NCBI GenBank assembly: GCA_965226885.1 | Contig: CBDDEL010000010.1 | Coordinates: 160,001 to 224,000, forward strand | Direction of reading: 5' to 3' | From: Opitutales bacterium | Lineage (GTDB): Bacteria; Verrucomicrobiota; Verrucomicrobiia; Opitutales; UBA2987 | Length of the DNA stretch: 64,000 nt | Part shown: in pieces, positions 1 to 32,489 of the stretch | How positions within the stretch are numbered: the first letter of the stretch is position 1 | How the letters are laid out: each line of letters opens with the position of its first letter | Notes under the pieces: generated by a model | Database searches by the model: none | What the model was told of the DNA's origin: nothing | Seen by the model: only the letters and a program-made list of their open reading frames with translations | Translations under genes and position numbers: made by a program

Positions 1-805
1 GTTTGAAAAAAGTTTGGAGGATGCCGAAAGACATTTTGCCGAGGGCTTCCACGGGCTGATGGCGGTGAATCCTTTGATCGAGGTCGGTTTGGCCGAATGC
101 ATCCAGTCCCCATTGGCGGTAAACATCAATCAGGTGGGAAGTTTCGACACCATAGCCGACTGGAAAAGGAATACGTTCCAAAACCTCCCGGCGAACCGCG
201 TATTCTCCCGAAAGGGGCTGCAAAATGGCGGCCAGATGGGGGAAAAAGAGAGAGAAGAGCGGGCGGACGAGGATTTCCGTGACACGGCCGCCGCCGGAGG
301 GCCTTATTTTATGGGAGTAGGCCAGGGGACGGTCATAAAATGCTTTCACGTATTTTATCTCATCGCGGTAGATGAGCGGGGCGACGAGGCCATAGACAAA
401 GCGGGGGTGGATGTTTTTGATGTCCGCATCGACATAGCAGATGATGTCGCCCTGGAGTTGATAAATGGCTTTCCAGAGGTTTTCCCCTTTGCCTGGTTTG
501 TCTCCCACTTCGGGAAGGATTTCGGAGGCGAGGTATACATCGGCCCCAAAGGCGGCGGCCACCTCTCTGGTTTTATCGGTCGAACCGGAATCGATGACGG
601 CGATTTCGTCGAGTAGGGGGTATCTTTTTTTTAGCTCGGAAATAAAAAGGACGACCACTTTGCCGATGGTTTTTTCCTCGTTGAGGGTGGGGATGCAAAG
701 CGAGATTTTGAGGTTTTTTTCTTCCTTTGCCTCGATCAGTTTTAGGCGGTCCCAAAAATCCTCGTGGTGGAAGGTGTTGCGCTGAAGCCAATCGTCAATC
801 TTCAT
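1..805 (-). CDS. gpgS: Glucosyl-3-phosphoglycerate synthase (GT-A fold), runs off the left edge
   Basis: Not in the ORF track. My translation from ATG 805 gives MKIDDWLQRNTFHH...ISLCIPTLNEEKTIG...VIDSGSTD...GKGENLWKA...YVDAD...GGGRVTEILVRP...QPLSGEYA...GYGVET, which are GpgS motifs. The start overlaps the stop of the upstream gene. Confidence 0.88.
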   Translation of the reverse strand, partial: MKIDDWLQRNTFHHEDFWDRLKLIEAKEEKNLKISLCIPTLNEEKTIGKVVVLFISELKKRYPLLDEIAVIDSGSTDKTREVAAAFGADVYLASEILPEVGDKPGKGENLWKAIYQLQGDIICYVDADIKNIHPRFVYGLVAPLIYRDEIKYVKAFYDRPLAYSHKIRPSGGGRVTEILVRPLFSLFFPHLAAILQPLSGEYAVRREVLERIPFPVGYGVETSHLIDVYRQWGLDAFGQTDLDQRIHRHQPVEALGKMSFGILQTFFK

Positions 806-1976
806 GGCCGATGCCTTGGTCGATCATTTGCAGGACCCCGATCAGTTGAGCGATGCCTGTAAAGATGGGTTCAATCTGGATTTGTTCGTCAAATTCGTGA
901 AGGTGCTGGCCGGAAGTCAGGCCCAGGGTGATGCCGGGGATTTTTTTTGCGATGAGGGCCGAAAGGGCGCCTACGCTGGGCGCGATTTTGGACTCAATGC
1001 CGAGGGTATCCATGATGGCGCGGGCTCCTTCAATCATCGGGTGGTATTTCCTGATACCGCCGGGTTTTCTGCGGGTGATAATGTGGAGCTTGGCTTGAGC
1101 CGCTGAATCCTCGGCCGTGGCGTGTAGAATTTCTTCGATTTGGCGGTGGATAGAGGTAATTTTTCCGCGCACTTTACTGCGCAGCTCGAACCGGAGGAGG
1201 GCCTTGGATGGGATGGTGTTGAAGGCATTTCCGGCGTTGATGGAACCGAGTATGAGCGAAGTGCCGGGCTCATCCAGCTCTGCAATGGCTAGTATGCGGG
1301 TGAGGATGTCATTGAGGTTTACGATCGCTCCGGCGGCGTTCGATCGTTCCCAGAAGGTTTCCGGCGGGGTTTTGCAGACGATCTCCCCGCGCAGCATGCC
1401 CAGACAGGAATAACTCAATCTGCCCAAGTGGATGCCAGCCAGGCATACGCCGGCATGGATGGGCCTATGGACGTGATTGAGAAAAAACCTGAAGCCGCCG
1501 AGGTCGCCGCGGCCCTGGCTTTGCACTGCGCCCAATAATATTAGGTTGTTGGAAAACCGGATGCCTAATTTTTCCAACAAGAGGGGCAATATGGATATGA
1601 CGGCCGCACCGATGCTGTTGTCGGCTATGCCGGGCCCCGCCAGCACGTCGGTGCCCAGCGTCACGGAGTGGTCAACAGAGCGGTCGAAAACGGTATCCAC
1701 GTGAGCTTCGAGGAGAATATTTTTTTTACGCCCGCCACCTTGGCCGGGAAGGACAGCGGTGGCATTGCCGGCTTCGTCGATGGAAATATTTTGCAGCCCG
1801 CATTCATTGAAACGGTCGCTTAAAAACTGTATGCGCTCCTCTTCTGCATGGGTGGGGGCGGGAATTTCGCCCATCATGACGCTGCTGGCCAGTATAATTT
1901 CCCGATAGCGGCGCAGGGCCTGCCTTAGTTCTGGCAGGGATTCGACGATGCTCTCTGTTTGAAATGCGAGTGACAT
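795..1976 (-). CDS. M20/M25/M40-family metallopeptidase-like protein
   Basis: Motifs AHVDTVF, GPGIADNS, GNAFNTIP and HxxDE. The likely start is ATG 1976 (MSLAFQ); the ORF track extends to 2042. Confidence 0.8.
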   Translation of the reverse strand: MSLAFQTESIVESLPELRQALRRYREIILASSVMMGEIPAPTHAEEERIQFLSDRFNECGLQNISIDEAGNATAVLPGQGGGRKKNILLEAHVDTVFDRSVDHSVTLGTDVLAGPGIADNSIGAAVISILPLLLEKLGIRFSNNLILLGAVQSQGRGDLGGFRFFLNHVHRPIHAGVCLAGIHLGRLSYSCLGMLRGEIVCKTPPETFWERSNAAGAIVNLNDILTRILAIAELDEPGTSLILGSINAGNAFNTIPSKALLRFELRSKVRGKITSIHRQIEEILHATAEDSAAQAKLHIITRRKPGGIRKYHPMIEGARAIMDTLGIESKIAPSVGALSALIAKKIPGITLGLTSGQHLHEFDEQIQIEPIFTGIAQLIGVLQMIDQGIGHED

Positions 1977-2182
1977 TACATGCTGATTCAAGAAATAGTA
2001 TTGGGCACAAGGGAATAGCTGCCAATCCTTTAATTTTTTCACTCATTTACTAAAAATGCGCGGATGGACGCGGATTTTTTGAGTGAGAGCCGGCGAGCCG
2101 CACTATTTATCTGTATTCACGCGTTGGCATCAACTCCTTGGCTCAATGCCATCGTGGGAGCCAGTATTCCCGATGCCTGGTG

Positions 2183-2205
2183 TCAAATATGAATTATGAA
2201 CGTTG
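2183..2205 (+). repeat. 23-bp direct repeat, copy 1 (TCAAATATGAATTATGAACGTTG, followed by ACCCC)
   Basis: 22/23 identical to 3979-4001; ends 6 bp from the regulator stop codon. Confidence 0.85.
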
Positions 2206-2211
2206 ACCCCT

Positions 2212-2865
2212 TTAGATTTGTGAAATTTGATATGCGCAGCGCCGGTCTCCCGATAAAATGTGCTCCGTGCGTTCGAGGCGCACTTGCTTTCCTAAAATCG
2301 ATCGAAAAAAGCATAACTCCGCCTCGCACACTGCATTGCAGGCTGTCGCTGCTTCGCAAATTGGACAATGGTTTTCCACAAATAGAAAGGAAGCTCTGTC
2401 TTTCGAACCGACTTCGGCCATGTAACCCTCTGCCGTTCGAAGCTCGGCAAGGTGGGTCAGTTTTTTTTGCAAGGATGCATTTTTCGAAATTTTATCACGA
2501 TAGGTGGAAATTTGATTTCCAATGGCACTCTTGAGGATTCCTTGAAGCGCCTTGGTTCCGTATTTCGATCCCATTGCTTCGATTAATTTGACCACAAAAG
2601 ACGAGTGATCGTCGGGGAAAAAACGGTTTGCGTATTGCGTCAAGGCCCAGAATTTTTCCGGACGTCCAACACCTTGCGCCCTTTCCCTGCAATTTACGCT
2701 TCCTTCATCCTGAAGTTTATATAGGTGCTGGCGGACGGCCATGGGAGATATTTTTAAGCGTAGCGCCAGGGTGGTGGCATCAGTTGAGCCAAGAGTTTTC
2801 AATAGCTTGAGAATAGCTAAACGGGTTCGACCCTGCCGGTTCCTGCTTCCTTTCGGTTGTTTCAT
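2212..2865 (-). CDS. SufR-like winged-helix metalloregulator (possible Fe-S sensor)
   Basis: N-terminal HTH (ISPMAVRQHLYKL...GVGRP) and C-terminal Cys motif HCPICEAATACNAVCEAE...GDRRCAY. Confidence 0.85.
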   Translation of the reverse strand: MKQPKGSRNRQGRTRLAILKLLKTLGSTDATTLALRLKISPMAVRQHLYKLQDEGSVNCRERAQGVGRPEKFWALTQYANRFFPDDHSSFVVKLIEAMGSKYGTKALQGILKSAIGNQISTYRDKISKNASLQKKLTHLAELRTAEGYMAEVGSKDRASFLFVENHCPICEAATACNAVCEAELCFFRSILGKQVRLERTEHILSGDRRCAYQISQI

Positions 2866-2890
2866 CGTAGGTATAATTATAGATTATGCT

Positions 2891-2946
2891 TTACAATCAA
2901 GGTGTAATTGGTCTTTTTAATAAATAAAGTAAAATCTTTAATTATT
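2891..2946. promoter_or_regulatory. Candidate operators in the divergent intergenic region
   Basis: Inverted repeats TTACA-N7-TGTAA (2891-2907) and AATAAATAAAG-N6-CTTTAATTATT (2919-2946, 10/11 match), just upstream of the sigma ATG. Confidence 0.4.
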
Positions 2947-2950
2947 TGCC

Positions 2951-3973
2951 ATGATAAACAGCGATCTCAGCAGTTCGGGCCGAAAACGGGGACGCCCGAA
3001 AAAAGGGGCAAAGGTTTATCCCAGGATATCGCATCTCGATTCTGAAATGGGGCTGAATTCCTCTCGAAGCAGCTCCTTGGAGCTTTTCTATGAGCGGATA
3101 AAGGATATCCCTTTATTGAGTGTTGATGAAGAAGTTACCCTTGCCCAACAAATCCAGAGAGGCGATGAAAAGGCCCGCCATAAAATGATCCTTTCTAATC
3201 TGCGGCTGGTTTTCAAGATCGCTTTGCATTATAACAATCTTGGGCTTTCGTCCGAAGATCTGGTGAGTGAAGGCATGGTGGGATTGGTTCATGCTAGCGA
3301 GCATTTTTTGCCCCATAAAGCAAAGTTCAGCTCCTACTCTTCGTGGTGGATCCGAAGATTCATGCATGAGGCCATCGCTCGCAATAGTGGGGCTGTCAGC
3401 GTGAGCACTTATACCGCAAACAAGATGATCGTGATGAGCAAAGTCGCCAATGACTTGCATGAGAAAATAGGTAGTGAGGCAAGCGATATGGAAATCGCGT
3501 TAGAGATGAAAATGCCCGAACATAAAGTTGCTTCCCTGCGCATGGTCAGGAAAATTCCAATCTCCTTGCAAGCGTCGGTTAATGATGATTTATCCACTCA
3601 GTTTGTCGAAATTCTGGCGGACCATAGCGCTCCTATCCCGTCTAAGATCTTCGAGCAAAATGCGCTTAAGCGGGAACTTGAAGAGTCTCTTCAATTGCTC
3701 AAGGGGCGTGAAGCCGAGATCCTTCGTCACCGTTTTGGATTGAATGGCTACTGTCCGAAAACCCTCGTGGATGTGGGTGAAATCTATACACTTACGCGAG
3801 AACGCATCCGCCAAATTCAAAACTCGGCGTTGATAAAACTTCGCAAAATATTTAACGAAAAAGCAAAACTGCGTAGCGCCCAAGAACTGGATGAAAATAG
3901 ACTGGAGAGAATTCGATCAGAAATGCTCAAGGAGTTTTTAGAGACCCGGCTTCATGACGTATCTTCTAATTAA
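2951..3973 (+). CDS. RNA polymerase sigma-70 factor, RpoD/RpoS-like paralogue
   Basis: Region 1.2 (IPLLSVDEEVTLA), region 2 (NLRLVFKIA...DLVSEGMVGL...WWIR) and region 4 (RFGL...TLVDVG...LTRERIRQIQ). No region 1.1; N-terminal KRGRPKK. Confidence 0.92.
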   Translation: MINSDLSSSGRKRGRPKKGAKVYPRISHLDSEMGLNSSRSSSLELFYERIKDIPLLSVDEEVTLAQQIQRGDEKARHKMILSNLRLVFKIALHYNNLGLSSEDLVSEGMVGLVHASEHFLPHKAKFSSYSSWWIRRFMHEAIARNSGAVSVSTYTANKMIVMSKVANDLHEKIGSEASDMEIALEMKMPEHKVASLRMVRKIPISLQASVNDDLSTQFVEILADHSAPIPSKIFEQNALKRELEESLQLLKGREAEILRHRFGLNGYCPKTLVDVGEIYTLTRERIRQIQNSALIKLRKIFNEKAKLRSAQELDENRLERIRSEMLKEFLETRLHDVSSN

Positions 3974-3978
3974 TGGCT

Positions 3979-4001
3979 TCAAATGTGAATTATGAACGTT
4001 G
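3979..4001 (+). repeat. 23-bp direct repeat, copy 2 (TCAAATGTGAATTATGAACGTTG)
   Basis: Starts 5 bp after the sigma stop codon; matches 2183-2205. Confidence 0.85.
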
Positions 4002-4011
4002 GTTTTGTATG

Positions 4012-4181
4012 ATCAACGAAGCGTTCATCCGAGAGTTCAATACGCGGGGAGTATGTCCAAGAGCGCGAAAACGTGCTGCTCCTTGGTAATGCCGGTACCG
4101 GTAAAACACACTTGGCCACCGCTCTGGGCTTTGCTGCCTGCGGCCAGGGCCGACGGGTCCGCTTTTTCGGGGTCACCGCCC
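4012..4181 (+). pseudogene. istB: Degenerate IS21 istB fragment
   Basis: Encodes [35 protein letters not shown]. Homologous to about 23500-23670 but with many substitutions and indels. Confidence 0.85.
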
Positions 4182-4980
4182 AAGCGGCTGAAGGATCTGG
4201 AGTGGCGTCAGCACTCAAAGTGGATTCACCGGGCTTTATCAGTGACCTATCGAAAAAGCTGAGGAAGTAGGGGACTATTGAGTTGGAAACCCATTTGAGT
4301 AAGTAGGCTTGGCCGTCGGTTTTTCCAAAGTTTCGATGGCAGTCTATTCAGCGTCCCGGCGGGTTTGCTGGTTGAGTAGGGATTTACAGAGTCTTTAATA
4401 TTAAAGACGGATTCTTTTCAATGATTGCCCGGTATGCTCGAATAGGAATCGGATTACTGGGCCTCCAGACTGGGTCCTTCCCTTGCCTGTCCTTCAGTGG
4501 AAACTCGTATAAATCCAATTTCGACTGGCACCCGATACGGGATGAGGAAGAAAATTTTTCGATACAAAAGGAACCAATGCTGTGGGAACCCCCAACAGAA
4601 GGAAAGACCTTTCCAAGCTTTGACACAGCAAAGGGAAAATCAGCAATAATTGTTTAATACTGCCGATTTGATCATTAAATATTGTAGGAAAGGATTGCCA
4701 TATCACATTGAAAGCAAAAAATTGGATCAAAATATTAGGAAGTAGCTATTTTCAACGATTATCAATGTTCATATGGGCAATCTCGGTTAAAGTACTATTT
4801 CGGGGGAAACTACTTGAATTCAATGACTTATCAATTTAGACCGGTTGATTTGCAAGACATATCCGGTGAACTAATGATGAAGTCTGCTGCCGTCGTAACA
4901 TCTGTAAACAGTTTCCCAACGGATGAAAATTTACTGGGCGAAAAATCTGATTAAGTAGCAGTTGAAGAGAAATCACCCTG

Positions 4981-5158
4981 ATGACGAAAATCTCGGAAAA
5001 TTTGCGCTCTACCCTTGATTTGCTTAAAATCTCTCCCCGCGCTTTCGTAATACCCGGGTTTTTGGGCATTGTGGATTCCATAATGCACCTGGTTGTCCTT
5101 GGATTACTCTTACCCCTTTCACGGTTGCTTCTCTCCGGTGGTGAAAAAACAGGTTTAG
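4981..5158 (+). pseudogene. N-terminal fragment of a membrane protein (ABC exporter permease-like), cut by IS1380
   Basis: Hydrophobic ...IPGFLGIVDSIMHLVVLGLLLPL reading into TTAG and the IS end. Family assignment is tentative. Confidence 0.45.
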
Positions 5159-5905
5159 CCCGGATATTTCATGAAGGGTAAAGTTTGGCTCGTTATTGCT
5201 ATTGGAGATGGATTTCTTTGTATTTTGAGCAGATCGTCTTGATTTTTAGGTGTTTTTCAGGGTGTAGAGACACTGCCCCCTTTCCCCCATTGGTTCGGTA
5301 GTGCCGGGGGCAGCACCAATGCACCCTTTAGGTTGGCACCAATCGGCGGGCCGCATGGTTGAAAAGACTGGCCCAAGGATAACTCTCACTTAGGTGAAAG
5401 TGAATCGTTCGGGTGTTGCGCACGATGACCGCTCCGATCTTGATTAATTTGAGCCGCAGGGTGTGGCATTGGGCCCGCGCCCACTTCGTCCCTTTTAAGG
5501 CTAACCGGCGCATGGCTTCCATCAAGGTGTAGGCCAGCGCCGACAAGAGCAATCGCCACTGATTGGCCCACCATTGATGGGCGCTGGTGCGCTCGCTGAA
5601 CAATTGCATCTGTTCCTTGATTCGGTTCTCCATTTCACCGCGGCCACAGTATACCTTGTCGTAAAGCTCCTGGGGATCGCCCGGCAGGTTCGTCACCACG
5701 AAGCGCGGGTTGGACCCCTGTGCGGTGTGTTCGGCTTTATGGATGACCAACCGCAGCCATCGCCACGAATCGGCAGCATAGACGAAGTCCTGGAATAGCC
5801 GTTGTTTTTTACCCCTTAGTTCGAACCATTCTTTGGCCTGCTTTTGCAACTGCTGGGCGTCTTGCTGCAAGCGTGCATTGCGAGCCATCCCCACGATGTA
5901 ACTAA
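5159..5905 (-). mobile_element. IS1380 right half (host copy, interrupted at internal CTAA)
   Basis: Right IR CCCGGATATTTCATG at 5159; transposase C-terminus 5328-5905; the sequence resumes at 19380. Confidence 0.92.
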
Positions 5906-6228
5906 CCCGGATATTTCGTAAAAAAAGTATCGTTGATATGCTTAACTGCTGATATACAGCAGGATAGATCAATAATTAAAGCAATATCAGCGATGACAAA
6001 AGGTAAACAATTAAAGCTACAGTTGACAAGGGTAAAAGGCCGCCGTGTGCGGGTTGATTTCAAGGGCGGAGAGGTTACTTCGGATGCCGGACTGCTTTTG
6101 ATCCGGGAAGTGGATCGGCAGTTGGGCTTGACCGAACGAGCGGCCCGACAGTTAGTGGACAAACGGCAGAAGGGCAAAGTACGCCATGAGGTATTGGGGA
6201 TGCTGCGGCAGCGCGTTTACGGGCTGGT
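5906..6228 (+). mobile_element. IS1380 left fragment truncated by IS21
   Basis: Left IR CCCGGATATTTCGT at 5906; matches the first 323 bp of the intact copy. Confidence 0.92.
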
Positions 6229-6401
6229 TGTAAACGCCGGGATGAAACCGGTACGGGGGTCGGGGTAAAACCGGTACGCTTGGAATAAGGTTTAGGTTAG
6301 TAATTGCAGGTACGTCAAGGTTTAGGGTTTGGGAGTTGGTTTTGGGGATTGGCTTGGGGTCGGTGAGGAGGCCGGAGGCCGACGAGCCGGGCCCAAGGCG
6401 T

Positions 6402-7169
6402 TTATTGTTTTGTGCCACGGCGACGGCGTCGAGCATCGCGCAAGCGGTAGCTTTGCCCGTTGGCTTCGAGGATATGCACCCGATGGGTGAGTCGGTCCAG
6501 CAGAGCTCCGGTGAGCCGTTCGGAACCGAGCACTTCGATCCAGTTCTCAAAGGGCAGGTTGGTGGTGACGATGAGACTGGTGCGCTCGTAAGCGCGGCTG
6601 ACCACGTCGAAGAGCAGTTCGGAACCGGTCTTGGAAAAAGGGACGTAACCGAGTTCGTCGAGGATGAGTAGGTCGAGCCTTTCGAGTTGCTTCATGAAGC
6701 GCTGCAGGTCGTGGTTGTCGCGTTGCTCGAGCATATGGGTAACCAGGGCGGTGACCCCGAAGAAACGGATCCGCCGGCCCTGGGCACAGGCGGCAAAGCC
6801 CAGGGCGGTGGCCAGGTGCGTTTTACCGGTACCGGCGTTACCGAGGAGCAGCACGTTTTCGCGCTGGTCGACATACTCCCCGCGCATGAGCTCTCGGATG
6901 AGCGCTTCGTTGATCGAGGGCTGCGCTTCAAAGGCGAAGCTCTCGAGGGTCTTGAGCACGGGGAAACGGGCGTTTTTGATCCGCCGCTGGGCGGCCCGCT
7001 GTTCGCGTTCAATGAGCTCCCGTTCGACCAGATGCAACAAAAAGGCGGCGTAATCGAGCCGGTCCCGGGAACAAGCCGCGGCCACCGCCGGCCATTCGCG
7101 CAGGATGGTGGGCAACTTCAGTTTCTTGAGGTGATGGTGTAACAGCAGCTGGTTTTTTTCTTCCTTCAT
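6402..7169 (-). CDS. istB: IS21 helper ATPase IstB
   Basis: Walker A GNAGTGKT, Walker B LILDELGY, and LDRLTH. Confidence 0.95.
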   Translation of the reverse strand: MKEEKNQLLLHHHLKKLKLPTILREWPAVAAACSRDRLDYAAFLLHLVERELIEREQRAAQRRIKNARFPVLKTLESFAFEAQPSINEALIRELMRGEYVDQRENVLLLGNAGTGKTHLATALGFAACAQGRRIRFFGVTALVTHMLEQRDNHDLQRFMKQLERLDLLILDELGYVPFSKTGSELLFDVVSRAYERTSLIVTTNLPFENWIEVLGSERLTGALLDRLTHRVHILEANGQSYRLRDARRRRRGTKQ

Positions 7170-8671
7170 AAAGCCCCTCCTGGAATCTTGAGCAGTTCGC
7201 TGTAGGCACCGAGGTCAGGGGCGGCCACACGGACGTGACGCAGGTGTGGATGGCCGTCCAGCCGGAAGGTTCTGCTCCCGTAGTCTTCCTGAGGATAGAG
7301 ATACTGGGCGATGGCCTCACGAGTCAGTCCCCCCACCCGCAGGGCCGAGACGACGGCCTGCTGCAAGGCCGCCATGGGGTGTTTCTCCAACAGCCGCAGC
7401 ACCCGGATATACTCCCGGGTGCCTTCGCCCCCGCATTGGCTTTCGAGCCGGCGTCTGAGGACCTGCAGGCACTGCGGCAACTGCCAGCCCGAGAGTGGGC
7501 GGGCGAAGTCCAAAGCGCCCGGTTTTTTCTCCAGCAAAGCCAGGTAGTGCACCGGCTCGAAAGAGACTTGCTCTTTATCCCAAATGCGGCGGTGCCGGGC
7601 CACCTCTTGGCCCCCACAGAAGATCACCACCTGCCGACAGGACCCTTCCACCACCACCGGATGGTGGGCGCAGCGCACCGGCACCGAATAGTCGTTGCAC
7701 TCGAAGCGCACCAGCGAGAGGCTGCTGACGCAGGTCGAGCGTTTGCGGCTCGCTTCAAAGGGTATGGGCGGCAACGCCAGCATGACGGCGCGCTCCTCGG
7801 CCAGCAGTTCCTTTTTCACCGCCCTTTTCCCGCGTAATTTACGCTCCATGTCCCGCTCACATGCCTCCAACAGCTTTGCGTTGAGTTCCTCCAGGTCCCG
7901 AACCTGCGGTACCGGTACCAGGAAGTTGGCCCGGGCATAACGCACGATCCCCTCGACCACGCCCTTCTCGTTGGGCCGGGCGGGCAGACAGAAGTGTTCC
8001 TCGAACAGGTAATGGCTCTGTAGCTGCAGAAACCCGTCGGTCAGCTTGCGTTCACGCGAACCGATAATCTTACCCACCGCCACCTTCGAGTTGTCATAGC
8101 TGATGCGCCGGGGCACCGCCCCGAAAAACTCAAAAGCTCGCAGGTGCCCCTCCCAGAAGCTCTCCGTGCACTCCCGTTCGAACACCTGCACGAAAAAGGC
8201 ATCGCTGTAGGGCAGGCTCATGGCAAAAAATGGCCGCCTACGCAATTGCCCCGCCTCCTTCACCAGGGCATGACCGAAGTCCACCTGTCCCTCCCCGGGG
8301 CGGTGCTCCAGCGGCACGAACACTTCCCGCCGCCTCGCTCGCAGCTCGGCCACCACCTCCTTGACCGCCGTGTAGCCCCCTTGGTAGCCCTTCTCCCGAC
8401 CCAAACGCTGGTAGATCCGTTTGGCCGTATGGCGCTGCTTCTTGGGCACGTTCCGGTCCGCTTTGAGCACCTCCTCGATCCAGCCCACATACGGATCGAT
8501 CTTGCGCTCTCGCCTCTTCTTGCGCCGGTATCCCGGCGGCTGGGAATAGGCCAGCATCTTTCCCAGGGTCTCCCAGTGCAGTCCCTCTTCTCGCATTACA
8601 GAGCGCTTGCTCTGCTTGTCCCGCAGCACTTTGTGCCGCACTCTTGTCCATTGCTTCATATCTCGATACAC
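7166..8671 (-). CDS. istA: IS21 transposase IstA
   Basis: GQVDFG, YDN, NEKGVVEG DDE motifs; 501 aa; 4-bp overlap with istB. Confidence 0.95.
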   Translation of the reverse strand: MYRDMKQWTRVRHKVLRDKQSKRSVMREEGLHWETLGKMLAYSQPPGYRRKKRRERKIDPYVGWIEEVLKADRNVPKKQRHTAKRIYQRLGREKGYQGGYTAVKEVVAELRARRREVFVPLEHRPGEGQVDFGHALVKEAGQLRRRPFFAMSLPYSDAFFVQVFERECTESFWEGHLRAFEFFGAVPRRISYDNSKVAVGKIIGSRERKLTDGFLQLQSHYLFEEHFCLPARPNEKGVVEGIVRYARANFLVPVPQVRDLEELNAKLLEACERDMERKLRGKRAVKKELLAEERAVMLALPPIPFEASRKRSTCVSSLSLVRFECNDYSVPVRCAHHPVVVEGSCRQVVIFCGGQEVARHRRIWDKEQVSFEPVHYLALLEKKPGALDFARPLSGWQLPQCLQVLRRRLESQCGGEGTREYIRVLRLLEKHPMAALQQAVVSALRVGGLTREAIAQYLYPQEDYGSRTFRLDGHPHLRHVRVAAPDLGAYSELLKIPGGAL

Positions 8672-8877
8672 TCCTCCTTTCTAGGATAAGCGTACCGGTT
8701 TTAAAGCGCCCTCTTTACCGTACCGGTTTTTCCCCGGCGTTTACAACCATCAATCCGTTGGGTAAGGGAAATGCAGAAACGACAGACCTTCCCATTTCGA
8801 AAAATTGGCCACCTTGTTCGTTTCGACCCAGCCGAGGTAGCAAAATATCTGTCGGCCCGGAATACTGTGGAGGCTAG

Positions 8878-11237
8878 CCCGGATATTTCGTAAAAAAGTA
8901 TCGTTGATATGCTTAACTGCTGATATACAGCAGAATAGATCAATAATTAAAGCAATATCAGCGATGACAAAAGGTAAACAATTAAAGCTACAGTTGACAA
9001 GGGTAAAAGGCCGCCGTGTGCGGGTTGATTTCAAGGGCGGAGAGGTTACTTCGGATGCCGGACTGCTTTTGATCCGGGAAGTGGATCGGCAGTTGGGCTT
9101 GACCGAACGAGCGGCCCGACAGTTAGTGGACAAACGGCAGAAGGGCAAAGTACGCCATGAGGTATTGGGGATGCTGCGGCAGCGCGTTTACGGGCTGATG
9201 AGGATTTGAACGACTTTGATACCCTGCGCCACGATCCATTGTTGCAAACGGTAACGGGGCGCATTGAAACGTTGGCCAGCGCGCCGACTTTGTGTCGTTT
9301 TGAAAACGGGCAGGATCGGCGGGCGGCCTTTGCGGTAAACGAGCTGTTGGTCGAACAGTTCATGGGCTCCTTTGCCGAGGAACCCGAAGAGATCATCCTG
9401 GACTTTGACGCCACCGACAATCCGGTGCACGGGCTCCAGGAGGGACGTTTTTTCCACGGTTATTATGATCATTACTGTTTTCTGCCGCTATATGTTTTTT
9501 GCGGTGATCAGCTGCTGGTGGCCTACCTGCGGCCGAGCAAGATCGATGCCAGCAAGCATGCCGGGGCCATCCTCAAATTGCTGGTTAAGCGGATTCGCCA
9601 AAGCTGGCCCCGTACGCGGATTATTTGGCGCGCCGACAGTGGATTTTGTCGAGACCGGATACTCTCTTGGTGCGACCGCAACGAAGTTAGTTACATCGTG
9701 GGGATGGCTCGCAATGCACGCTTGCAGCAAGACGCCCAGCAGTTGCAAAAGCAGGCCAAAGAATGGTTCGAACTAAGGGGTAAAAAACAACGGTTATTCC
9801 AGGACTTCGTCTATGCTGCCGATTCGTGGCGATGGCTGCGGTTGGTCATCCATAAAGCCGAACACACCGCACAGGGGTCCAACCCGCGCTTCGTGGTGAC
9901 GAACCTACCGGGCGATCCCCAGGAGCTTTACGACAAGGTATACTGTGGCCGCGGTGAAATGGAGAACCGAATCAAGGAACAGATGCAATTGTTCAGCGAG
10001 CGCACCAGCGCCCATCAATGGTGGGCCAATCAGTGGCGATTGCTCTTGTCGGCGCTGGCCTACACCTTGATGGAAGCCATGCGCCGGTTAGCCTTAAAAG
10101 GGACGAAGTGGGCGCGGGCCCAATGCCACACCCTGCGGCTCAAATTAATCAAGATCGGAGCGGTCATCGTGCGCAACACCCGAACGATTCACTTTCACCT
10201 AAGTGAGAGTTATCCTTGGGCCAGTCTTTTCAACCATGCGGCCCGCCGATTGGTGCCAACCTAAAGGGTGCATTGGTGCTGCCCCCGGCACTACCGAACC
10301 AATGGGGGAAAGGGGGCAGTGTCTCTACACCCTGAAAAACACCTAAAAATCAAGACGATCTGCTCAAAATACAAAGAAATCCGGTAGTGTTAACATGACG
10401 AATGTTTGATATTGCTGTTGTATTCCCAGATGAACAAGCACAGGACGCGAAAATGCATGACCAAAGACTTCGAGAATGACAGCGTTTTACGCACATAGCG
10501 TGACAGGGACTGTCGCAAGGTATTGTTCCAGCGTTCGATATGGGCGGTTTGGCCGGATTGTTTCCCGCTGGCGCTGTTGTGAGGGAAAACCTTGTCGTAG
10601 CTTTCCCAGTAATCGCTTACGGTGGCACAGTCGCGATAGGGCTGGGCGATGTTGTGATACAACTGCCAGCACGTTTGATCGCTACGATCACCCAGAGAAA
10701 ACCCGACGACCTGTCGGGTACGTCGACACAAGGCTACCCATAGCCATACCTGCCCCGAACGCTTATCGCCCCAGAATGACCACACCTCGTCCAGTTCCAG
10801 CACATCACTACACTGGCGGGCAAGCAGAGTGGACTCCAGCTTCGGCAAACTCAGGACTTTTTTTTAATCCATTCGATGACCGTCTTTGGGGCTACCCCGA
10901 AGGTACGGTAAATGGCACGCAGGCTCATCCGGTTTTGGTGCGCACGGAGCACCTGCTTGACCAGCGCCGGAGGATGCTCACGACTTTTGGGGTGAAGCCG
11001 AAACTGATAACCACACCCCTTGCATCGATACTTCTGAACCCCTTTCGGATCCTTGCCGTGCTTGATGATGTGATCGCTTCCGCATTGAGGACATTTTACT
11101 GTGATATGGACCATTCCCAGTTCACAACATAATCACGCTAAAAAGTACAGCCTAAACATTCAAAATGTTAACACTACCAGAAATCCATCTCCAATAGCAA
11201 TAACGAGCCAAACTTTACCCTTCATGAAATATCCGGG
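8878..11237 (+). mobile_element. IS1380 copy with a 10-bp deletion frameshift and an IS1-B nested in its 3' end
   Basis: Both IRs present; CTAG on both flanks; GTGGCGGGCT is missing at 9197/9198. Confidence 0.93.
10383..11178 (-). mobile_element. IS1-family type B, 796 bp (insA 10851-11114, insB 10390-10848)
   Basis: IRs GGTAGTGTTAACAT; 8-bp TSD AGAAATCC; zinc-ribbon InsA; DEVW...SDYW...ERWN InsB; A8G run with insB in the -1 frame. Confidence 0.95.
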
Positions 11238-30735: not shown

Positions 30736-30760
30736 CGGCTATATATATAATAGAAAAAGC

Positions 30761-30784
30761 GGTCAATGTTCATAATTCATATTT
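30761..30784 (-). repeat. Third, inverted copy of the 23-bp motif
   Basis: Reverse complement is AAATATGAATTATGAACATTGACC, 23/24 identical to 2185-2208. Confidence 0.8.
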
Positions 30785-30834
30785 TGCGTAGGCCTTCTCG
30801 CCTCGTGACCTTGGGGATTATGGGGTGTCAGGTT

Positions 30835-32489
30835 GGTAGTGTATAAAAAAAGAATGTTATTTTGTATTTTTAGCTGTACAAATAGCGTTAGGCAGTTTAT
30901 TCTTAGTGCATGGTTACTAAAATTATTAATTGTCGGCACTGTGGAAGTGAAAATATCATTAAATTTGGCAAGACGCCCAACCATAAACAGCGCTACCGCT
31001 GCCATGATTGTGGTAAACAAAGCCGCGAAAACCCCACAGTGAAATACACCGAAGAGCAAAAAGAAATGATCCTTCGAGTCTATCAGGAACGCAGCAGTCT
31101 ACGCGGTTTACAGCGCGCCTTCGGGGTGAGTCCCAACACCGTTTTGAGTTGGTTAAAAAAAACGACAATCGCTGCGACCGCTCAAAAGCACGATTCTTGC
31201 GGCCCGCCGCCATGATGTCATTGAACTGGACGAACTGTGGTCTTTTGTGGGGCGCAAGAGCGATGCCCAATGGGTTTGGATCGCTCTTTGCCGACGCACC
31301 CGTCAAATCCTCTCCTATGCCATTGGGCCTCGGGATTGGTATCGTTGCCGGGAACTTTACGAGCGTCTGCCACGGGCCTACAAAAGATGTGCCACCTACA
31401 GCGACTTTTGGAGCACTTATGATGAAGTCTTTCCTCATAACCGATCCGTGGGAAAAGAAACCGGTGAAACGGCCCATGTGGAACGATGGAACAATACCCT
31501 GCGCCAACGACTGGGTCGTTTCACACGCAAAACCCTCTCCTTTTCCAAGCTTTTAAGAGTATGCATGAAACCTGTCTGAGACTTTTCATTCATCAATATA
31601 ATCAAGAATTAGCCACCATTCCTACTTAATACACTACCCCCAGATGAACAAGCACAGGACGCGAAAATGCATGACCAAAGACTTCGAGAATGACAGCGTT
31701 TTACGCACATAGCGTGACAGGGACTGTCGCAAGGTATTGTTCCAGCGTTCGATATGGGCGGTTTGGCCGGATTGTTTCCCGCTGGCGCTGTTGTGAGGGA
31801 AAACCTTGTCGTAGCTTTCCCAGTAATCGCTTACGGTGGCACAGTCGCGATAGGGCTGGGCGATGTTGTGATACAACTGCCAGCACGTTTGATCGCTACG
31901 ATCACCCAGAGAAAACCCGACGACCTGTCGGGTACGTCGACACAAGGCTACCCATAGCCATACCTGCCCCGAACGCTTATCGCCCCAGAATGACCACACC
32001 TCGTCCAGTTCCAGCACATCACTACACTGGCGGGCAAGCAGAGTGGACTCCAGCTTCGGCAAACTCAGGACTTTTTTTTAATCCATTCGATGACCGTCTT
32101 TGGGGCTACCCCGAAGGTACGGTAAATGGCACGCAGGCTCATCCGGTTTTGGTGCGCACGGAGCACCTGCTTGACCAGCGCCGGAGGATGCTCACGACTT
32201 TTGGGGTGAAGCCGAAACTGATAACCACACCCCTTGCATCGATACTTCTGAACCCCTTTCGGATCCTTGCCGTGCTTGATGATGTGATCGCTTCCGCATT
32301 GAGGACATTTTACTGTGATATGGACCATTCCCAGTTCACAACATAATCACGCTAAAAAGTACAGCTTAAACATTCAAAATGTTAACACTACCCTTTTCCA
32401 AGCTTAAGAGTATGCATGAAACCTGTCTGAGACTTTTCATTCATCAATATAATCAAGAATTAGCCACCATTCCTACTTAATACACTACC
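30835..32489 (+). mobile_element. Compound IS1: full type A (30835-31638), truncated type B on minus (31639-32392), type A right end (32393-32489)
   Basis: One 8-bp TSD GTCAGGTT brackets the whole compound; the A copy has a TT insertion at ~31552. Confidence 0.92.

Follow-up and report, generated by a model that had tools for sequence, protein, structure and literature searches.

Two divergent regulatory genes, one for a SufR-like regulator and one for a sigma-70 family factor, are enclosed almost exactly by a short direct repeat in a 64,000-nucleotide stretch of an Opitutales bacterium genome, and the question raised by this locus is whether the repeats are the ends of something that moved. 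The stretch, hereafter the window, corresponds to G000:C10:160001-224000, where G000 is a 5.48-Mb assembly of 17 contigs; coordinates without a contig prefix refer to the window. The preliminary description of this DNA took the repeats for attL/attR-like scars of a mobile regulatory cassette, placed by a trans-acting recombinase or HUH enzyme. The 23-base repeat TCAAAT(A/G)TGAATTATGAACGTTG is present, as described, at 2183-2205 (copy 1, TCAAATATGAATTATGAACGTTG) and 3979-4001 (copy 2, TCAAATGTGAATTATGAACGTTG), both on the plus strand and identical at 22 of 23 bases, and the copies lie 6 bp from the stop of the SufR-like open reading frame (ORF) and 5 bp from that of the sigma ORF, respectively. 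We consider it probable that they are solo copies of a lineage-specific family related to the terminal inverted repeat (TIR) of a RAYT-like Y1-HUH unit on another contig (RAYT stands for REP-associated tyrosine transposase, and REP for repetitive extragenic palindrome). Judged by sequence comparison, the two copies are members of a dispersed repeat family linked to a RAYT-like transposase, which is a known kind of system, and the striking bracket around two regulatory genes would thus be explained by an ordinary repeat system.

The repeats are not a private pair, as had been assumed. The 21-mer AAATRTGAATTATGAACRTTG has three matches in the window at no more than 3 mismatches (mean, 0.00 in 100 shuffles); the third, at 30764-30784 on the minus strand, and the many more copies genome-wide had both been missed. 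The three window copies, with their extents as aligned to the family, are as follows.

2183..2215, plus strand: repeat copy 1, with two heptamers and an outer 'tip' (AAATATGAATTATGAACGTTGA CCCCTTTAG); the best profile match in the genome (E = 1.7e-8).
3979..4001, plus strand: repeat copy 2, the motif without the tip; profile match of E = 0.0011, covering profile positions 3-25 only.
30754..30787, minus strand: repeat copy 3, which follows the 3' end of a YiiD_C thioesterase gene at a distance of 28 bp.

The tip of copy 1 overlaps, on the other strand, the stop codon of the SufR-like gene. ACCCC directly follows copy 1, which bears out the TGACCCC end noted earlier; copy 1 reads AAAGGGGTCAACG on the opposite strand. 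After copy 2, which ends in ...CGTTG, there are 9 bp and then a degenerate fragment of istB from the insertion sequence (IS) IS21. Copy 3 is bordered on its other side by an IS1-like element starting about 50 bp away (near 30836), and it is kept at the orthologous site of the closest relative, G004, with 20 of 21 motif bases identical.

The family to which these copies belong, its numbers, the architecture of its flanks, its distribution and its conservation at orthologous sites are read directly from the genomes. G000 contains 22 copies at no more than 2 mismatches (12 forward and 10 reverse; 0 with the reversed-pattern control), 26 at no more than 3, and 35 at no more than 4. A profile built from 45 instances gave 28 matches at E < 0.01 and 32 at E <= 10 (nhmmer). 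An anchored listing of 26 copies shows a conserved block of about 30 bp with the consensus aAATATGAATTATGAAC(A/G)TTGAc..CTTTt, and most dispersed copies carry the tandem heptamer TATGAAT TATGAAC (e.g., 2188-2201 in the window). In 11 of the 26, the CTTT tip faces the 3' end of a convergent non-IS ORF at a distance of 6-126 bp; 5 have a co-oriented ORF whose start lies no more than about 45 bp away or within the motif itself; the remaining copies adjoin IS elements. Two genes, one of them a sulfatase gene, start at the second ATG of the motif. By their Pfam names, the 36 flanking ORFs have no evident function in common. Groups of copies also share 100-145 bp of upstream sequence (e.g., 'family A' and 'family D'), and that of family D includes the hairpin CAGCCGGAGAGGCTGG followed by a T-run. 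In the relative G002, an RtcB-like gene (486 residues; G002:C53:7640-9460) is tightly bracketed by two inverted units of about 145 bp of family D, whose motif tips face the gene, one lying 42 bp ahead of the start and the other overlapping the stop.

The family is restricted to a narrow lineage. With a 20-mer at no more than 2 mismatches, the motif was found in all four other genomes of the genus (1, 3, 4, and 11 copies), and only 1 of the 36 genomes of the order searched outside the genus has it (G032, one copy). Several copies are kept at orthologous sites in G004.

The link to a transposase is provided by contig C13. As the preliminary description had proposed, the genome was scanned for copies flanking a Y1-HUH gene, and a full Y1-HUH gene was found bracketed by the motif as an inverted repeat in a TIRtron-like unit of 1,056 bp (G000:C13:439112-440167). 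Two short-form copies (ATATGAACGTTGACTCCTTTTT) lie at C13:439112-439137 on the minus strand and 440145-440167 on the plus strand (E = 4e-4 and 3.7e-3), and together they form a perfect 23-bp inverted repeat, AAAAAGGAGTCAACGTTCATATT, around the gene (439112-439134 and 440145-440167) with the tips outward; one of them overlaps the stop codon of the gene. Given 32 profile matches in 5.48 Mb, two inverted matches within 60 bp of the ends of this gene are not due to chance (about 1e-6 by rough arithmetic). The gene is the only full-length Y1_Tnp (PF01797) gene in G000, the second match being a fragment of 57 residues; a single-copy gene per genome is a trait of REP-RAYT systems. Its product (MVFMPRTNRIE..., 329 residues, encoded at C13:439131-440117) matches Pfam Y1_Tnp at 7.9e-14 and scores 63.6 bits against NCBIfam REP_Tyr_transpos and 26.9 bits against the IS200 model. 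The sole sequence match in the PDB is E. coli TnpArep (4ER8; E = 0.002), with which the YIxxNP motif region is aligned; H63-F64-H65 and YIHLNP (Y122) fall on the catalytic motifs. From these similarities, the protein appears to be closest to the REP-associated tyrosine transposases. The earlier proposal of a trans-acting HUH enzyme therefore survives in part, in that the motif flanks the sole full Y1-HUH gene, but the attL/attR scars do not, the two being copies among about 28 dispersed ones.

Homologous loci in relatives show a similar architecture. Homologues of the transposase were found at E <= 0.001 in 22 of the 41 genomes searched (G000 included), and inverted repeats of at least 10 bp flank the gene in G000 and in six of the eight other loci (G039, G020, G006, G001, G035, and G009); among the nine loci examined, no such repeat was found at the G002 locus or at the G032 fragment. 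Four of the six repeats in relatives have a head of the GGGTCAG or AAAGGGGTCAG type (GGGTCAGACTGCG..., AAAGGGGTCAGGC..., GTCAGACTGCGA, and AGGGTCAGTCC), i.e., the reverse complement of ...CTGACCC(CTTT). The remark in the preliminary description that TGACCCC-type ends occur near Y1/RAYT-like genes is thus borne out by GGGTCAG or AAAGGGGTCAG heads around the Opitutales homologues. The G039 repeat has 24 copies in its own genome at no more than 3 mismatches (control, 0), some of them paired as inverted doublets with spacings of 162 and 318 bp, and occurs 13 times in G006; that of G001 was found at its gene only.

Gain and loss can be followed at one flank of the unit. The neighboring gene, which we take from its sequence to be lpxI-like, has a 3' flank that is conserved in all four genus relatives. 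At this flank, G000 carries the whole unit (L067:866-1930), G002 carries a compact inverted doublet of 46 bp, AAAAGGAGTCAATGTTC-TAATATATATTA-CGAACATTGATTCCTTTT (L149:1447-1499), and G004, G003, and G001 carry neither. Whole unit, compact inverted doublet, and nothing are therefore three states of one site, which bears on the origin of REP-like palindromes; the doublet at the site of a whole unit may show how palindromic REP-like elements arise from such units. The T-run after the G000 repeat aligns with the T-run of the empty sites, so that part of the tip may be target sequence, but a second case, at C14:145470, does not fit. G004 (L147) and G003 (L148) have, upstream of the lpxI-like gene, about 200 nt of conserved non-coding sequence that terminates in a hairpin plus a T-run. 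This stretch, which may be an RNA gene, occupies the place of the transposase unit and an IS1-like element in G000.

The mechanism that we propose is drawn by analogy from RAYT/REP and IS200/IS605 systems. The 329-residue HUH-tyrosine enzyme would act in trans on single-stranded copies of the motif, and it would account for the spread or maintenance of non-autonomous copies between genes, mostly just past their 3' ends. The copy at the 3' end of the regulator gene would be older than the split from the sister species, and the one at the 3' end of the sigma gene would be specific to G000 and truncated beside the IS21 remnant. Their direct orientation around a divergent gene pair would then be a by-product of where such repeats accumulate and not a mark of cassette ends. 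That this enzyme moves these copies, and that it does so on single strands, we infer from the known systems named above. Of the 26 copies in G000, 22 have an orientation that matches the local GC skew (±25 kb), as do 14 of the 20 in relatives, counts that include adjacent and orthologous copies and so overstate independence; long ORFs match the skew in only 854 of 1637 cases (52%). This skew-matched orientation could reflect replication-coupled, single-strand insertion.

Several observations weigh against this reading. Classical RAYT and IS200 enzymes recognize hairpins, and five DNA folds of single copies gave no hairpin (z = -0.40, 0.01, 1.49, 0.42, and -0.37); the one inverted doublet in G000 (C14:556488/556604), which is present in G004 too, does fold (z = -5.1). 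There is one heptamer in the copies that flank the gene but two in most of the dispersed ones, and hence the present gene may not be the direct source of the latter. The REP_Tyr_transpos score of 63.6 bits is under the curated cut-off of 80. G004 has 11 copies of the motif, and its cognate gene was not detected; the homologues in G001 and G002 are only 41-42% identical, and the one that comes closest (65%) is the G032 fragment. The copies are also more closely spaced than expected, the two around the gene pair being 1.8 kb apart, with 3 pairs within 2 kb as compared with about 0.24 expected for 26 copies by rough arithmetic. Finally, no excision product was seen in contigs assembled from public sequencing runs.

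The motif is not an end of any of the abundant IS families, in agreement with the preliminary description, as found by a BLAST search with 26 motif-centred stretches. A terminus of a DDE-type IS or of a miniature inverted-repeat transposable element (MITE) was ruled out, the multi-copy BLAST matches being IS elements that end about 0-50 bp from the motif edge. G000 carries about 270 near-full IS1380-like alignments with one end in common, and block coverage reaches 223 for an IS1-like element and 175-213 for the other IS blocks; with so heavy a load, contacts between IS elements and motif copies are expected. One IS1380-like end lies 59 bp from a motif copy, and an IS of about 1.8 kb with its own terminal repeats abuts another. 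IS110 was rejected as the source of the motif (single copy, flanks without a motif match), and the 55 IS200-type TnpA genes of G004 are unrelated to it.

The alternatives concern mainly the gene pair and what surrounds it. The features involved are the following.

2212..2865 (stop included), minus strand: gene for a SufR-like ArsR/helix-turn-helix regulator of 217 residues (Pfam HTH_5, 2.3e-6).
2951..3973, plus strand: gene for a sigma-70 family factor of 340 residues, with regions 1.2, 2, 3, and 4.
795..2042, minus strand: gene for an M20-type peptidase, the left neighbor of the pair (ORF table, Pfam).
2075..2182, plus strand: stretch before copy 1, weakly like family A and of uncertain assignment (anchored listing and MAFFT alignment; no BLAST report).
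4011..4270, plus strand: degenerate internal fragment of IS21 istB (Pfam IstB_IS21, 7e-9).

The regulator is closest to cyanobacterial SufR (NCBIfam SufR_cyano, 1.5e-37), with a score of 129 bits that is under the cut-off of 178.8, and it has a paralogue (44%) on contig C14. The sigma factor is RpoS/RpoD-like, yet it is under all equivalog cut-offs. No recombinase gene is adjacent to the pair among the window ORFs, which agrees with the earlier account. The istB fragment is about 89% identical to many intact IS21 copies and begins 30 bases after the start of the 21-mer. The window itself has an IS21 copy at 6402-8671.

Among the nine genomes of the family, a sigma orthologue occurs only in G004 (80%), the other matches being 36-43% identical; G000 itself has sigma paralogues of this 36-43% type, and G001-G003 lack the pair and have only sigma paralogues at 41-43%. 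G004 has the same adjacent, divergent arrangement of regulator and sigma genes as the window, and DNA homology between the two genomes covers 2194-2953 and 2979-3983. At the place orthologous to copy 1, the 3' end of the G004 regulator gene, a 4-kb search found GGGGTCATTTATGGACGTTGACCCCTTTGG, which is the motif minus one heptamer (shortened form TCATTTATGGACGTTGACCCCTTT; profile E = 1.7e-4); at the 3' end of the G004 sigma gene, the same search gave no motif match even at E <= 100. The M20 gene of G004 lies about 10 kb from the pair and is inverted, and its upstream region has a full motif copy of its own and then another gene. The synteny blocks around the pair are only 1-5 kb long.

A first alternative is that the copies are live HUH joining points, at which gene-sized DNA is cut and rejoined at ...TTGA and which serve as docking or expression sites, the block 2194-3983 with the pair being one such segment. 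Several differences between G000 and G004 start exactly at the TTGA end of the motif. At C15:64188, a 914-bp stretch found only in G000 directly follows the motif, and a sugar-phosphate isomerase-like gene (C15:64188-65123) has had its native 5' end replaced, so that it reads in frame from the second ATG of the motif (MNIDPILP...); its G004 counterpart (91% identity) lies elsewhere and has its own start (MEKNEP...). A difference of about 3 kb between the two genomes likewise follows the motif at C16:647450. The sulfatase gene that starts at the motif's ATG and the tightly bracketed RtcB-like gene of G002 also fit this alternative. Because of these TTGA-start differences, the skew-matched orientation and the upstream families, a small probability is kept for gene-segment joining, although we regard it as unlikely. 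If the enzyme does join gene-sized segments at the motif, this would be a new route of gene shuffling.

The mobile cassette, in which the same-strand copies would be HUH cleavage sites and the pair would have moved as single-stranded DNA like an IS200/IS605 element with cargo, is quite unlikely. It accounts for the homology block 2194-3983, whose two ends fall within copy 1 and at the beginning of copy 2, and for the differing contexts of the pair, which adjoins the M20 gene in the window and is about 10 kb from it in G004, where that gene is inverted and its upstream region carries its own motif copy followed by another gene. The pair is accessory (2 of 9 family genomes), and its GC content of 0.44-0.47 is under that of contig C10 (0.52) and of all contigs (0.50-0.55); elsewhere, as described above for C15, a relocated gene is joined exactly at the TTGA end. 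However, the two bounding repeats did not travel with the pair, since in G004 the copy at the regulator end is shortened and none could be detected at the sigma end. Owing to a local direct repeat (CGGAT..ACGCGGA), the left breakpoint cannot be fixed to better than about 25 nt and falls either at the motif edge or about 25 nt before it. Hundreds of IS copies split both genomes into blocks of 1-5 kb, so that intergenic block ends are expected, and copy 2, which has no tip, stands next to an IS21 remnant.

Checks for movement of the pair gave no support either. No empty site was found; G004 carries the pair, and G001-G003 lack it. Contigs of four public runs (X1, X3, X4, and X5; window 1-9000) bridge both copies, that of X3 covering 1570-4247 with 0 differences, and none of them joins about 4001 to about 2183 as a circle junction would, although contigs cannot show rare forms; one weak skip from 2213 to 5159 (depth 2, 25-letter side) was not trusted. 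Two sites elsewhere were tried as empty sites and rejected: the G000 orthologue of 'gene Y' of G004 has an unrelated 3' flank, and the family A copy that lies between hisG and tal, the gene for transaldolase, is absent at both G004 flanks, where the locus is rearranged and hence not a clean empty site. In X1 and X5, contigs of a second strain or species (90-95% similar) cover the M20 gene at 1500-2040 and, upstream of about 2040, no longer follow the window, which is consistent with a G004-like arrangement. The preliminary description had held that its cassette would fall if the motif proved to be a known IS or MITE end, and by that rule it fails. The roughly 28 scattered copies and the presence of the same family at the HUH gene argue for a selfish repeat and not for a demonstrated two-gene cassette.

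Very unlikely, too, is a cis-regulatory element of the host, i.e., an operator or promoter of a regulon or the core of a small RNA, perhaps connected with the sigma factor or the regulator next to it. Such an element could be kept at orthologous intergenic sites at a species divergence of 85-90%, as the motif is, and the copy number is regulon-sized; in five contexts the motif lies 35-45 bp upstream of a start codon or overlaps it, and some copies of families A and D have a TAnnTTTG-like box about 85-100 nt upstream. On the other hand, the 36 flanking ORFs lack a coherent function, 11 copies are directed at the 3' end of a gene that converges on them, -35/-10 pairs are not found at a consistent spacing, and the inverted repeats around the transposase gene would be left unexplained. 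An inspection of 26 copies by eye found no partner box at a fixed spacing, which dismissed sigma-70, extracytoplasmic function (ECF), sigma-54, and Bacteroidetes-type promoters. A search of 14 motif loci against Rfam (E <= 1) returned two tRNAs only, and the literature on transcription start sites and promoters in Verrucomicrobia yielded nothing relevant. A regulatory role could still have been taken on secondarily, as an exaptation of the repeat.

An integron-type docking site is the least probable of these explanations. The motif would be attI- or attC-like, IntI would join DNA at G|TT, and the upstream 'family' sequence would be a promoter. In its favor, AAC(G/A)|TTGAC resembles the GTTRRRY core, the sister species differ in gene content after the motif, two genes start at its second ATG, and an intI gene split by an IS lies 21-25 kb before the window (G000:C10:135438-135905 and 138425-138898, with 186.7 + 233.8 bits against TIGR02249 and an insertion of about 2.5 kb between the halves). 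However, intI is preceded by a repeat of different sequence (ending in ...CATATAGTTAG / ...TATAGTTAG / ...GCCGCCTACATATAGTTAG), for which BLAST gave 13 further matches in the genome, mostly with 68-92% identity, and only 1 of its matches lies within 1.5 kb of a motif match. No intI was found at E <= 1e-30 in five other motif-bearing genomes, a search that was positive in no control genome; single copies lack a hairpin, a crude and strict R''/R' attC scan that may miss real sites gave 0 matches, and the 3'-side neighbor of the motif is antisense 11 times and co-oriented 5 times. Further candidates were dismissed: dif/Xer, IHF, and Ter-like sites gave TTATG-type partial matches only to their consensus sequences, with the copy number also against dif, and a five-codon mini-ORF (ATG AAT TAT GAA CRT TGA) is contradicted by variation that is not of the synonymous type and by the loss of the ATG in several copies.

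The repeat family and its unit can be compared with four known systems. With integrons, the motif shares a short recurrent site, gene content after the site that differs between relatives, and an AAC/GTT-like core; the differences are that the attI-like repeat of this genome is another sequence, that the motif forms no hairpin, and that there is no attC at the end of the pair. IS200/IS605 elements lack TIRs, have their hairpins in subterminal position, and code for a TnpA of about 130-150 residues. The Y1-HUH catalytic core is common to both, and the bias of motif orientation to the local GC skew (22 of 26) is a second likeness; work on IS608 reportedly leads one to expect such a bias for single-strand, replication-coupled transposition, and its link to the motif may follow from the same reasoning. 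REP-RAYT systems, which are said to have been treated also by Nunvar 2010 and by Bertels and Rainey 2011, resemble the present one in having a single-copy HUH-tyrosine gene flanked by its own repeat in inverted orientation and extragenic repeats that are vertically kept in a lineage, and the one inverted doublet here likewise forms a long hairpin. The unit here differs in that it is not a palindrome, has no GTAG or CGTC head, and occurs in tens of copies, mostly singlets, and not in hundreds (for REP/REPIN-RAYT, see Bertels et al. 2017, bioRxiv 10.1101/119735).

The closest likeness is to the TIRtrons, or TIRYTs, whose RAYT-like genes are, in the accessible text of the original description, flanked by TIRs unrelated to REPs, some of which share GGGGWSAS (Di Nocera, De Gregorio and Rocco 2013, BMC Genomics 14:522, PMC3733652). 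The same text states that 'moderately abundant families of TIRs' occur as singles, dimers or groups; for Opitutales it gives GTAG REPs in O. terrae only and mentions no such TIRtron case. In G000, too, a Y1-HUH gene is bracketed by non-palindromic TIRs, one of which overlaps the 3' end of the gene, and its TIR belongs to a moderately abundant dispersed family with singles and an inverted dimer. GGGGWSAS, a feature of some TIRtrons only, is matched at 6 of 8 positions at the gene (GGAGTCAA), at 7 of 8 in copy 1 (GGGGTCAA), and at 8 of 8 in the TIR of the G020 homologue (AAAGGGGTCAG), where the head reads GGGGTCAG. Two differences from TIRtrons stand out: most dispersed copies here contain an internal tandem duplication of 7 bp that the copies flanking the gene do not have, and many copies are conserved across species. 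As the palindrome that defines REPs is absent, we place the family with the TIRtrons and not with REP/REPIN, a placement made by the features of the repeats and not by TIRYT protein signatures. To this class, described in 2013 and, as far as the available literature indicates, apparently little studied since, the present locus adds an example from Verrucomicrobiota (Opitutales), in which a RAYT-like transposase with non-palindromic terminal repeats is accompanied by a dispersed and partly conserved repeat family.

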